Shown here in pieces: positions 24,333 through 25,403 of a DNA stretch of 28,490 nt. Numbering within the stretch: position 1 is the first letter of the stretch; each line of letters opens with the position of its first letter. Below the pieces are notes generated by a model. It was not told the DNA's origin and searched no databases. It saw only the letters and a program-made list of their open reading frames with translations. Where the stretch lies: the IMG/VR virus record IMGVR_UViG_2585427739_000003. One strand, written 5' to 3'. Origin of the DNA: a virus (taxonomy: Duplodnaviria; Heunggongvirae; Uroviricota; Caudoviricetes). The position numbers were made by a program, and so were the translations under genes.

Positions 24333-25403
24333 TTACCCCCTGAAGCCCGGCGGAATTTCGTTATCCGGTTCAGAAATATGATTCACACAACGCTGGTTGT
24401 TCGTGCCGCTTACCGGGAGCAACCAGGGGTTCTCAAAATTCCGGTCCGGTCCAAAAAACGTCGTCGCTCGCTGAACAAATTCCGTTCCCGTTTTCCCGGT
24501 AGCCGCCAAGTATCTTGCGTAACGCCTCACGCCATCCAGCATGGCCTCTGGTGGCACCCCCTCGCGTAATCTGGCCTTCCAGGCACTGAAAGCGGATTTC
24601 TTCGGGTTTGCCCCAGCACGCAACGGGTACTCCCGCCAGACCTGTTCGAACACATCCGGATAATCCACTCGTCCCACAGACTGCCCGGTGTTTTCCGGGA
24701 CTACCCGATCGGCTTCCCGCTGAATGGCGGAATCGGCTTCGGGCTGCTGCAGTTGGTGTGATTGCTCCGGCCTTGCGGTCATCACCTGCTGCACAGCGCC
24801 CGAATCGGCTTTCAGCGCATACGCTGAATCGGCTTCCGGTGTCGTGCCTGCTGGCTGACCAAGATTGACGGTCTGAACATCCCCTGCCTGGTTCGTGGCG
24901 TTTTTTACGCCATGGACCATAGTGTTTTGATCTTCTTGATCTGTATCTTTATCTGTATCTTTATCTGTCGTGACTCGTCGTGACATGTGCGTGACATTTC
25001 GTGACGCGCCGTGACAATCGCCATTTTGTTCCCGCTTTCTTTCCCTCTCTCGCTGCGCCCTCTTGCGCTCTGCAGGAGATTTTGCGGTTTGCGAAATATT
25101 GCCGTTGTCCTCTTTAAGCACCTGGCGTTTTTCCCATCCAGTGATTAAATCACCATCAAGTCCCCGCCCCTGCATCGTCTGAAAAATTGAATCAATTACC
25201 TCTTCTGTCACGTCGAGCGCACTTGCCAAATCTTCTGTCGTGACATCAATGTGACCTCGCGTGACATTTCGTGACGCGCTCACCAGGAGGTGGATATACA
25301 CTGCCATCACTGTTGCAATTGGCTGCCCTGACACCCTGGCAATTGTTCGCCACTTAGGGTCATTTGGCATGTCATGCCATAATCTGAGCCAGGCGTTAGC
25401 CAT
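24333..25403 (-). CDS. Replication initiator / replisome organiser (lambda O-like), origin iterons inside the gene
   Basis: Start placed at the ATG at 25403 with GAGGTG ribosome-binding site. N-terminal domain resembles phage replisome organisers; the coding sequence contains two clusters of CGTGAC repeats. Confidence 0.7.
   Translation of the reverse strand: MANAWLRLWHDMPNDPKWRTIARVSGQPIATVMAVYIHLLVSASRNVTRGHIDVTTEDLASALDVTEEVIDSIFQTMQGRGLDGDLITGWEKRQVLKEDNGNISQTAKSPAERKRAQRERERKREQNGDCHGASRNVTHMSRRVTTDKDTDKDTDQEDQNTMVHGVKNATNQAGDVQTVNLGQPAGTTPEADSAYALKADSGAVQQVMTARPEQSHQLQQPEADSAIQREADRVVPENTGQSVGRVDYPDVFEQVWREYPLRAGANPKKSAFSAWKARLREGVPPEAMLDGVRRYARYLAATGKTGTEFVQRATTFFGPDRNFENPWLLPVSGTNNQRCVNHISEPDNEIPPGFRG
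24940..25030. repeat. Iteron cluster 1: five CGTGAC repeats at 10-11 bp spacing, flanked by TCTTTATCTGTA direct repeats
   Basis: Read directly: ...tctgtatctttatctgtatctttatctgtcgtgactcgtcgtgacatgtgcgtgacatttcgtgacgcgccgtgacaatcg... Confidence 0.6.
25235..25280. repeat. Iteron cluster 2: four GTGAC repeats (three in the CGTGAC form), sharing the motif GTGACATTTCGTGACGCGC with cluster 1
   Basis: Read directly: ...tgtcgtgacatcaatgtgacctcgcgtgacatttcgtgacgcgctcacc... Confidence 0.5.

Follow-up and report, generated by a model that had tools for sequence, protein, structure and literature searches.

Two iteron arrays within the replication initiator gene of a lambdoid Escherichia coli phage and its proteobacterial relatives: a predicted in-gene origin

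The stretch of DNA studied here, 28,490 nucleotides long and hereafter called the window (IMG/VR virus record IMGVR_UViG_2585427739_000003; Duplodnaviria; Heunggongvirae; Uroviricota; Caudoviricetes), comes from a lambdoid phage whose host is Escherichia coli. Its replication initiator gene carries nine same-strand copies of a short core, GTCAC(G), grouped in two arrays: five in array B, within the DNA encoding a disordered linker, and four in array A, in the DNA encoding the winged-helix domain (Table 1; all coordinates refer to the whole window). In-gene iteron origins are textbook knowledge for lambda. The balance tips slightly, in our opinion, in favour of an origin of this kind with two initiator-binding arrays, in which array A would act in cis as an enhancer. 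A preliminary description of this DNA had presented the bipartite layout as a peculiarity; it turns out instead to be a trait of a large family of initiators, present from Escherichia to Stenotrophomonas.

All the elements listed in that description were found where it had placed them. Its cluster 1, our array B, has five CGTGAC on the plus strand, starting at 24969, 24979, 24990, 25000 and 25010 (steps of 10, 11, 10 and 10 bp, i.e. at helical spacing), plus tandem repeats at 24934-24969. Its cluster 2, our array A, has four more GTGAC, in the form of CGTGAC at 25239, 25260 and 25270 and of TGTGAC at 25250 (steps of 11, 10 and 10 bp), the four cores spanning 25239-25275. Both arrays contain at least three direct repeats in helical phase, as in known in-gene iteron origins; they are separated by 229 bp, from the last core of A to the first core of B, and lie together within 310 bp. 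The motif said to be common to the two clusters is an exact 21-mer, GCGTGACATTTCGTGACGCGC, located at 24989-25009 and again at 25259-25279. A single inverted core, absent from the preliminary description, accompanies array A and encodes D64-V65-T66, in the turn of the helix-turn-helix. It occurs at the same site in most relatives with a GTCAC-type core, with a third-position information of 1.0-1.15 bits, and together with array A it occupies nt 127-198 of the 1071-nt gene.

The repeats behave like iterons, being phased beyond a shuffle null. GTCAC is present nine times on the sense strand, with seven neighbouring pairs 10-11 nt apart; over 20000 codon shuffles it occurred 1.3 times on average and eight times at most, never nine, and never formed more than one phased pair. 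Whatever the 5-mer considered, the codon shuffles gave a maximum of two phased pairs, and the rest of the 28.5-kb window does not exceed two either. The number of CGTGAC in the whole window is ordinary (18 against 11.3 expected, a value reached by 5 of 100 shuffles); the signal resides in clustering and phasing.

As the preliminary description had noticed, the repeats force repeated peptides into the protein: SRNVT at two places (amino acids, aa, 134-138 and 44-48) and DKDTDKDTD at one (aa 147-155), residues being counted from the ATG at 25403. It could be argued that these peptides (SRNVT, or simply VT) are the object of selection and that the periodicity of the DNA is a side effect, the more so as SRNVT is present twice and a related S-R-N-V-T-V-G-H appears in the alternative loop used by Stenotrophomonas elements (see below). 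We find this idea hardly credible. The unit of 10-11 nt is not a multiple of three, so that the core is read in three frames, as x-S-R, as V-T and as G-H or C-H; since the period runs through all of them, the repeated peptides look like a by-product of the DNA repeats. Moreover, the codons are fixed inside the cores (GTC, ACG, TCA, GGT, CAC), whereas the same residues use varied codons in the flanks, and lineages with another core encode unrelated peptides at both places. In a protein alignment, two members of the family (P0090 and P0101) have the peptide GNAGVTQSNA at both array places.

The comparison with relatives, which the preliminary description had called for, revealed a second cluster that is present in these relatives, co-varies with the first one and is constrained at synonymous sites. 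The outcome that would have spoken against the earlier proposal was a local duplication of recent date, lacking in the relatives; this is not what is observed, the second cluster being recurrent. A tblastn search of phage records provided homologues of the N-domain in Aeromonas phage pAEv1818 and Pseudomonas phi1-like phages (68%), in Caudoviricetes from spring water (47%) and, further away, in Ralstonia phages Hennie and Firinga (39%) and in cyanophages. Arrays were found in all those examined at the DNA level among the first three homologue groups of this list. The Aeromonas and Pseudomonas phages have GTCACG at both places, and Ralstonia phage Hennie has GCAACG at nt 130-182 and 401-431 of the gene, plus two inverted copies (166 and 196).

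Scanning one genome per species gave 80 loci, at 35-98% identity; Gamma-, Beta- and Alphaproteobacteria are represented among them, as are a few other phyla. The loci were anchored on the conserved motifs DPKW and WxxRQ, region A being the interval between the two anchors and region B the 240 nt following WxxRQ; the best 5-mer with a period of 9-12 nt in region B was taken as the motif of the locus and then sought in region A. An equivalent of array B, with at least three phased copies, is present in 75 of the 80 loci. The motif derived from B is phased in region A with at least two copies in 50 of these 75 loci (67%), and with at least three copies in 42; in 1839 control blocks of equal size from the same loci, it reached two copies in 5 cases (0.27%) and three in a single one. 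Altogether, 54 loci were scored as having both arrays, 21 as having B only and five as weak. The control blocks, which extend about 3 kb on either side, contain no further phased cluster in nearly all loci. The two-array arrangement spans elements of Escherichia, Ralstonia, Paraburkholderia, Sphingobium and Stenotrophomonas.

The core motif differs according to the lineage of the N-domain and changes jointly in A and B, with at least four classes; the repeat sequence thus co-varies with the DNA-binding domain of the initiator. Classes with both arrays include GTCACG, (C/G/T)(G/T)AACGC, GCAACG or ATGCAACG, and GTGACG. The first is found in elements of Escherichia, Pseudomonas, Aeromonas and Bordetella, CGAACGC or GTAACGC in many beta- and alphaproteobacteria, and GTGACG in Paraburkholderia. 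Because the arrangement recurs and the motif changes in both arrays together, we regard array A as a conserved DNA element and not as a chance duplication.

Selection at the DNA level is also visible at synonymous sites. In 22 non-redundant loci of the GTCAC class with a gap-free region A and four cores, third codon positions carry 1.83 bits of information within array-A cores and 0.47 bits outside (Mann-Whitney p = 5e-6). We are therefore fairly confident that both arrays are DNA elements selected for initiator binding, the binding being predicted. The opposite view is that array A is a passenger without function, copied from B by local duplication or gene conversion into a permissive loop. 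It draws on the exact 21-nt identity of the two arrays in this phage, on the loop at aa 46-55, which is a less confident stretch of the AlphaFold2 (AF2) model of the N-domain, and on those relatives that have no array and a loop of the same length. We hold it to be highly improbable: such a copy would not be expected in 67% of 75 loci against 0.27% of controls, nor would its motif track that of B over at least four classes, nor would the synonymous sites of its cores be nearly frozen in 22 lineages when neighbouring ones vary freely; in addition, some lineages have the array at a second location. Both this explanation and selection on the peptides are already disfavoured by these data.

In this phage, array A overprints the loop that joins helix 29-45 of the winged-helix domain to helix 56-63 in the AF2 N-domain model. 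In elements from Stenotrophomonas (L072, L078) and Lysobacter (L079), the upstream array is instead in an insertion of 7-9 aa in the loop between helices 16-25 and 29-45, with three direct copies in Stenotrophomonas and six in Lysobacter, where their orientation is opposite to that of array B. In Ferrovibrio (L075), it also lies in a loop other than that used in the present phage, again in the orientation opposite to array B; in all these loci it is in the first 60 nt or so after DPKW. These differences in both site and orientation suggest that the upstream array was relocated or gained independently. In members of the family without array A, the loop is just as long and contains another conserved peptide (…ERGxLxGWxDED); since the length is the same, array A was overprinted on the loop, not inserted. 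A bolder reading, which we consider unlikely, is that the upstream array is obligatory and was acquired convergently, the two arrays looping out the intervening 230 bp to fire the unwinding tract. If this were true, sites on both sides of the helix that determines specificity (see below) would keep the specificity of the protein and its sites inseparable during the shuffling of lambdoid modules, and we would be dealing with a self-referential origin architecture that arose two or more times, in loops and orientations that differ, and that is undescribed for any phage.

A scan of IMG/VR returned only copies 98-99% identical, which inform on stability and not on diversity. The layout of four direct plus one inverted core, five cores and four hexamers is kept in 74 of 82 near-identical copies from E. 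coli, Shigella and E. albertii. Close relatives differ in the number of cores, and this holds for the two arrays: expansion of array A from four to six cores, with the inserted peptide TCHGVSR, is seen in an E. albertii element (L006), and extra units are present in two protein variants (P0003 and P0022) in array A, and in the former also in array B. The same N-domain is followed by different partners, i.e. DnaB in Hennie, a 609-aa 'P' protein in phi1 and a 246-aa 'replicative helicase' in pAEv1818. Since both arrays are kept while the module is paired with different C-domains and helicase partners, we think that they are tied to the N-domain.

Array B is followed by an AT-rich, purine-rich tract of hexamers (Table 1), in which Tandem Repeats Finder detected a period of 12 (2.9 copies, 95% matches between 24934 and 24969) as well as a period of 6. 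The AT-richest 30-mer of the gene, 24939-24968, lies there, with an AT fraction of 0.73, the average over the gene being 0.46. The 30-mer richest in AT within the N-terminal half comes directly after array B in about 60 of 79 relatives, and the tract consists of purine-rich hexamers (GATAAA, GATACA, GACAGA or AGAGAA), including when the AT content of the host is as low as 31-40%. The family-averaged AT profile has its sole clear peak after array B (+0.17), the bump after array A being weak (+0.08). A second unwinding element at 25182-25211 (0.70 AT) had been considered and was rejected on account of this profile, where it corresponds to the weak bump.

At the distal edge of the tract are two GATC sites 9 bp apart, out of three in the interval 24300-25500, and just beyond the tract is an imperfect palindrome. 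The palindrome is kept in Shiga toxin (Stx) phage 75/02 by paired changes (GGCGT..ACGCC to GGCGA..TCGCC), with two amino-acid replacements as a result (V to E, N to I), which hints at selection on a DNA or RNA hairpin. No exact (0-mismatch) DnaA box or integration host factor (IHF) consensus was found in 24300-25500, and a scan of the gene for internal promoters and terminators gave results at chance level, the sole promoter-like match being antisense and inside array B. As a separate observation, one natural variant of the initiator (P0019; 302 aa; four contigs, including a 5.1-Mb chromosome) has a deletion of 54 aa that begins shortly past the start of array B and reaches the first PEADSA repeat. 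Array B is lost for the most part, together with the AT-rich tract and the palindrome, and the element is probably a cryptic prophage with a defective origin.

The preliminary description had called the product of the gene an O-like initiator. That it is the replication initiator of the phage is supported by the match of its full length to PHROG 3729, 'replication initiation protein' (E = 2e-256), and by the position of the gene after cI-, cro- and cII-like genes. The likeness to O is one of analogy only: a Pfam search with the whole protein gave no family at E <= 0.01, that of lambda O included, and Phage_rep_O is missing even from the weak matches of the N-domain at E <= 10. What the N-domain does match, weakly, is PF09681 (Phage_rep_org_N), with 14.4 bits for a cut-off of 23.3 (E = 0.038), residues 5-120 being aligned with positions 1-115 of the 121 of the model; the PHROG 'replisome organizer' families 4880 and 5968 are matched at 1.6e-5 and 2.3e-4. 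A Foldseek search with the full-length model gave nothing at E < 1 against PDB, this model being dominated by the disordered linker (per-residue confidence, pLDDT, < 50 at residues 128-243), and a separate AF2 model of the N-domain was therefore made. It has the fold of a winged helix resembling the N-terminal domain of DnaD. We thus describe the N-domain, on the basis of this model, as DnaD-NTD-like (NTD, N-terminal domain) and as a presumptive distant relative of Phage_rep_org_N, below the Pfam threshold.

The C-terminal domain is DnaT-like. The family profile matches DnaT structures in PDB (6aep_A, E = 6.9e-8; 2ru8_A, 9.9e-6; 9zbt_D, 3e-5), pLDDT is 81-94 at residues 251-330, and PF17948 is present in close relatives; the NCBIfam DnaT equivalog model gives 19 bits for a cut-off of 201, as expected when only the tail matches. 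The same C-domain is found in Stx phage 75/02, where it precedes a DnaC-like gene, and action via DnaC and DnaB would fit with this neighbourhood.

Between the two arrays, the gene encodes a basic helix, placed at residues 110-130 in the AF2 model. When residues encoded by the arrays are excluded, columns 110, 114, 117 and 121, which are P, K, Q and E in the present protein, are those that best track the motif class; their spacing (i, i+4, i+7, i+11) puts them on one face of this helix. This hints at four candidate specificity determinants, class tracking being confounded by phylogeny.

We propose the following scenario. The N-domains would bind the cores of array B head to tail, along one face of the helix; the GATA(A/C)A tract would melt after core binding, the palindrome being perhaps part of the core origin, and the DnaT-like C-domain would recruit the host DnaB-DnaC helicase system. 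Array B and the AT-rich tract are probably the core origin, where melting would start. Array A would be a second array for the same protein, with four direct cores and one inverted core about 230 bp upstream, acting in cis with B, by binding cooperatively or by forming a small loop of DNA, in such a way that a larger nucleoprotein complex is formed at the unwinding tract. To this enhancer or looping role, taken on its own, we give a little less than an even chance. The whole may be a bipartite origin; an AT-rich tract is adjacent to array B only.

Several observations weigh against this scenario. About one quarter of the family members have no recognisable array A, which means that it is not universally essential for initiation, and loci without A do not have significantly more copies in B (3.9 vs 4.2, p = 0.13, a comparison in which motif tie-breaks misclassify a few loci). 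No strong AT-rich tract accompanies array A. The exact 21-nt identity noted above shows recent gene conversion or duplication in this lineage, so that the similarity of the two arrays is partly young. The distances between A and B cluster at a period of 9.9-10.0 bp (R = 0.49, look-elsewhere P = 0.046); this inter-array helical phasing is suggestive at best, since the gain or loss of whole iterons itself shifts distances by about 10 bp.

Some of these facts would be equally at home in a scenario of negative control, in which the initiator bound early in its own gene blocks transcription, or handcuffs sister origins. In iteron plasmids, inverted half-iterons and extra sets of iterons limit initiation. 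Here, an inverted core lies beside array A, and in several lineages (Pseudomonas phi1, L010, L011, L023, L026) array A contains a perfect palindrome, GTCACGTGAC. Operator-type sites to which Rep dimers bind (pSC101, pPS10, R6K) typically have this arrangement. The lack of an AT-rich tract at A goes in the same direction, and its absence from about a quarter of the family is what one expects of a modulator and not of a core part. However, there is no promoter-like site over array A on the strand of the gene, so that it is not a classical operator, and cores that are direct and phased resemble origin iterons and not operators. We therefore see negative control as a serious, if unlikely, alternative to the enhancer.

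Array A could also be a barrier, at which bound initiator stalls the helicase or the fork leaving the tract in that direction, leading to a unidirectional start or to a switch to rolling-circle replication. The origin-binding protein of phage SPP1, G38P, has a second site, oriR, for which fork stalling is proposed (PMC3485210), and theta replication from SPP1 oriL is unidirectional (PMC5737612); array A is, in addition, polar and present on one side only of the AT tract. Nevertheless, we give little credit to this hypothesis: the orientation of the array varies in the family, being inverted in Lysobacter L079 and Ferrovibrio L075, and array A is just about 230 bp from the unwinding tract. The enhancer scenario thus remains the one that we favour, and we have confronted it with other known systems.

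The lambda origin includes a palindrome. It is situated in the middle of O and combines iterons with an AT-rich tract (PMC7466680). As in lambda, the predicted origin of the present phage is inside the gene of its own initiator, in part in DNA encoding an interdomain linker, it shows the succession of iterons, AT-rich tract and palindrome in the direction of transcription, and its iterons force a repetitive peptide into the protein. Unlike in lambda, there is no sequence relationship of the initiator to O, the repeats are direct, every 10-11 bp, with an asymmetric 6-bp core (GTCACG), in contrast to units of roughly 19 bp with internal dyad symmetry, and no gene for a P-like partner is present. 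The iterons of lambda and Stx phages (four to six in the latter) form one contiguous block, whereas a second array exists here about 230 bp upstream, in the coding sequence of the DNA-binding domain. With neither a sequence match nor dyad iterons of about 19 bp like those bound by O dimers, the protein does not belong to the lambda O family, and sequence comparison makes it an analogue of O, not a homologue.

In SPP1, the origin is also in the gene of the organizer (oriL in gene 38), with repeats and an adjacent DNA-unwinding element, and the protein, G38P, binds two separate sites (PMC5737612), as is predicted here. The second SPP1 site, oriR, is a separate locus, which Missich et al. 1997 call 'distant' in their title (a reference given in PMC5737612), whereas both arrays are here within one gene. 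SPP1 also differs in that the present initiator has a DnaT-like C-domain and no phage helicase or loader next to it. In phage P4, ori and crr are two separated clusters of one short repeat bound by the initiator, and the second supports initiation in cis; alpha, the P4 initiator, is a primase-helicase unrelated to the present protein, and ori and crr are kilobases apart. Such distances are at variance with two arrays in a single gene. Two separated clusters of the same core are thus present here, as in a bipartite origin, and the second is not at a distant locus outside the sequence coding for the DNA-binding domain.

Gene 18 of phage L contains six imprecise 11-bp repeats (PMC8022706). P22 and L are similar to the present case in having lambdoid initiator genes other than O with short iterons in the coding region; they differ in that a single block of repeats is described, with no report of a second one in the coding sequence of the DNA-binding domain (PMC8022706). 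The in-gene iteron origin is therefore already known (lambda O, P22/L gene 18, SPP1 gene 38). Iteron plasmids (P1 with incC/incA, F, R6K, pSC101) have several sets of sites per initiator, inverted copies beside direct ones and variation in copy number; their sets of iterons, in units of about 19-22 bp, flank rep or overlap its promoter. Here, by contrast, both sets are in coding sequence and the unit is about 10 bp; and, of the features of a plasmid autoregulatory operator, the inverted core is present and overlap with the promoter of the initiator is not. What appears to be new is the second array overprinted on the DNA-binding domain; we found no account of two in-gene iteron arrays for this family in the full-text literature, and, with older subscription work (lactococcal origins, P4, the Weigel & Seitz review) outside the search, a prior description is possible.

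The family, named just 'phage replisome organizer', appears to have had no described origin. It now has a predicted one, which can be read from the sequence, with a predicted binding core for each lineage and candidate specificity residues. This provides a system for asking how a nearby second array of initiator sites contributes to the firing or control of an origin, and a case of dual coding in which a constraint of DNA binding shapes a protein loop; in practice, it also gives a rule by which, in proteobacterial prophages, origins can be annotated and groups of replication compatibility predicted.

Table 1. Features of the initiator gene and of its surroundings in the window
Feature	Position	Strand	Remarks
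Replication initiator gene	24333..25403	-	1071 nt, 356 aa; start at ATG 25403, preceded by GAGGTGA
Winged-helix N-domain	25104..25403	-	aa 1-100
Array A	25239..25279	-	four direct GTCAC(G/A) cores, 10-11 bp apart; encodes aa 43-56
Inverted core, single	25207..25212	+	GTCACG; 26 bp downstream of array A in gene sense
Basic helix	25026..25085	-	aa 107-126 (AKSPAERKRAQRERERKRE); coding DNA between the two arrays; candidate specificity determinant
Array B	24969..25015	-	five direct GTCACG cores on the sense strand; encodes aa 130-146, interdomain linker with pLDDT < 50
AT-rich, purine-rich repeat	24934..24969	-	GATA(A/C)A hexamers, i.e. three 12-mers TCTTTATCTGTA; encodes DKDTDKDTD; proposed DNA-unwinding element
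Two GATC (Dam) sites	24929..24941		at 24929 and 24938; distal edge of the AT-rich tract
Imperfect palindrome	24889..24919		13-pair stem, 5-nt loop; just past the AT-rich tract; from a scan allowing G-T pairs
GAATCGGCTT(C), four copies	24708..24839	-	two pairs forming a 96-nt direct repeat; copies on the plus strand of a minus-strand gene
DnaT-like C-terminal domain	24336..24674	-	aa about 244-356; profile against PDB, pLDDT, PF17948 in relatives
cI-like repressor	26105-26878	+
P22-Cro-like gene	25897-26112
cII/YdaT-like gene	25475-25900		the initiator gene comes next
DUF977 / 'Ren-like' gene	23870-24292		after the initiator gene
Zinc-ribbon protein gene	23456-23869		after the DUF977 gene

The open reading frame (ORF) called by the program, 24333-25409 on the minus strand, opens at a GTG at 25409, upstream of the ATG that we have chosen; the latter is taken as the real start because of the ribosome-binding site GAGGTGA and of homologues starting with MANAW or MANSW. 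The protein is named 'phage replisome organizer' at NCBI, in a cluster of 5786 member sequences; the family comprises 3017 protein clusters at 90% identity, with thousands of copies in E. coli and Shigella. No gene for a helicase or loader follows that of the initiator in the window, the interval 22700-24292 containing the DUF977 and zinc-ribbon genes and small nin-like ORFs. Over its whole length, the window is 98.5% identical to a deposited record, Escherichia phage vB_EcoS-640R1, and the replication module therefore belongs to elements that have been sequenced as phages.

The initiator of Shigella phage 75/02 Stx (L165, 2501-3589 on the minus strand of the locus) combines the same DnaT-like C-domain with an unrelated N-domain. 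It has GAAGGGGCTTC / TAAGGGGCTTC at nt 183-204 of the gene and, in reverse complement, GAAGCCCCTTC / AGAGCCCCTTTC at 438-461. These clusters are about 255 nt apart, with just 2+2 good copies, and the second adjoins a purine-rich (GAACAG)x5; such 2+2 copies hint at a layout similar to that with two arrays.

The four GAATCGGCTT(C) repeats, which are not part of the iteron system, encode the linker motifs PEADSA, KADSG, EADSA and EADR. In natural variants of 324 aa (P0004, P0011, P0017), precisely the 32 aa that separate the repeats are missing. A motif of the EADS type is found again in distant homologues and may be a short protein-interaction motif.

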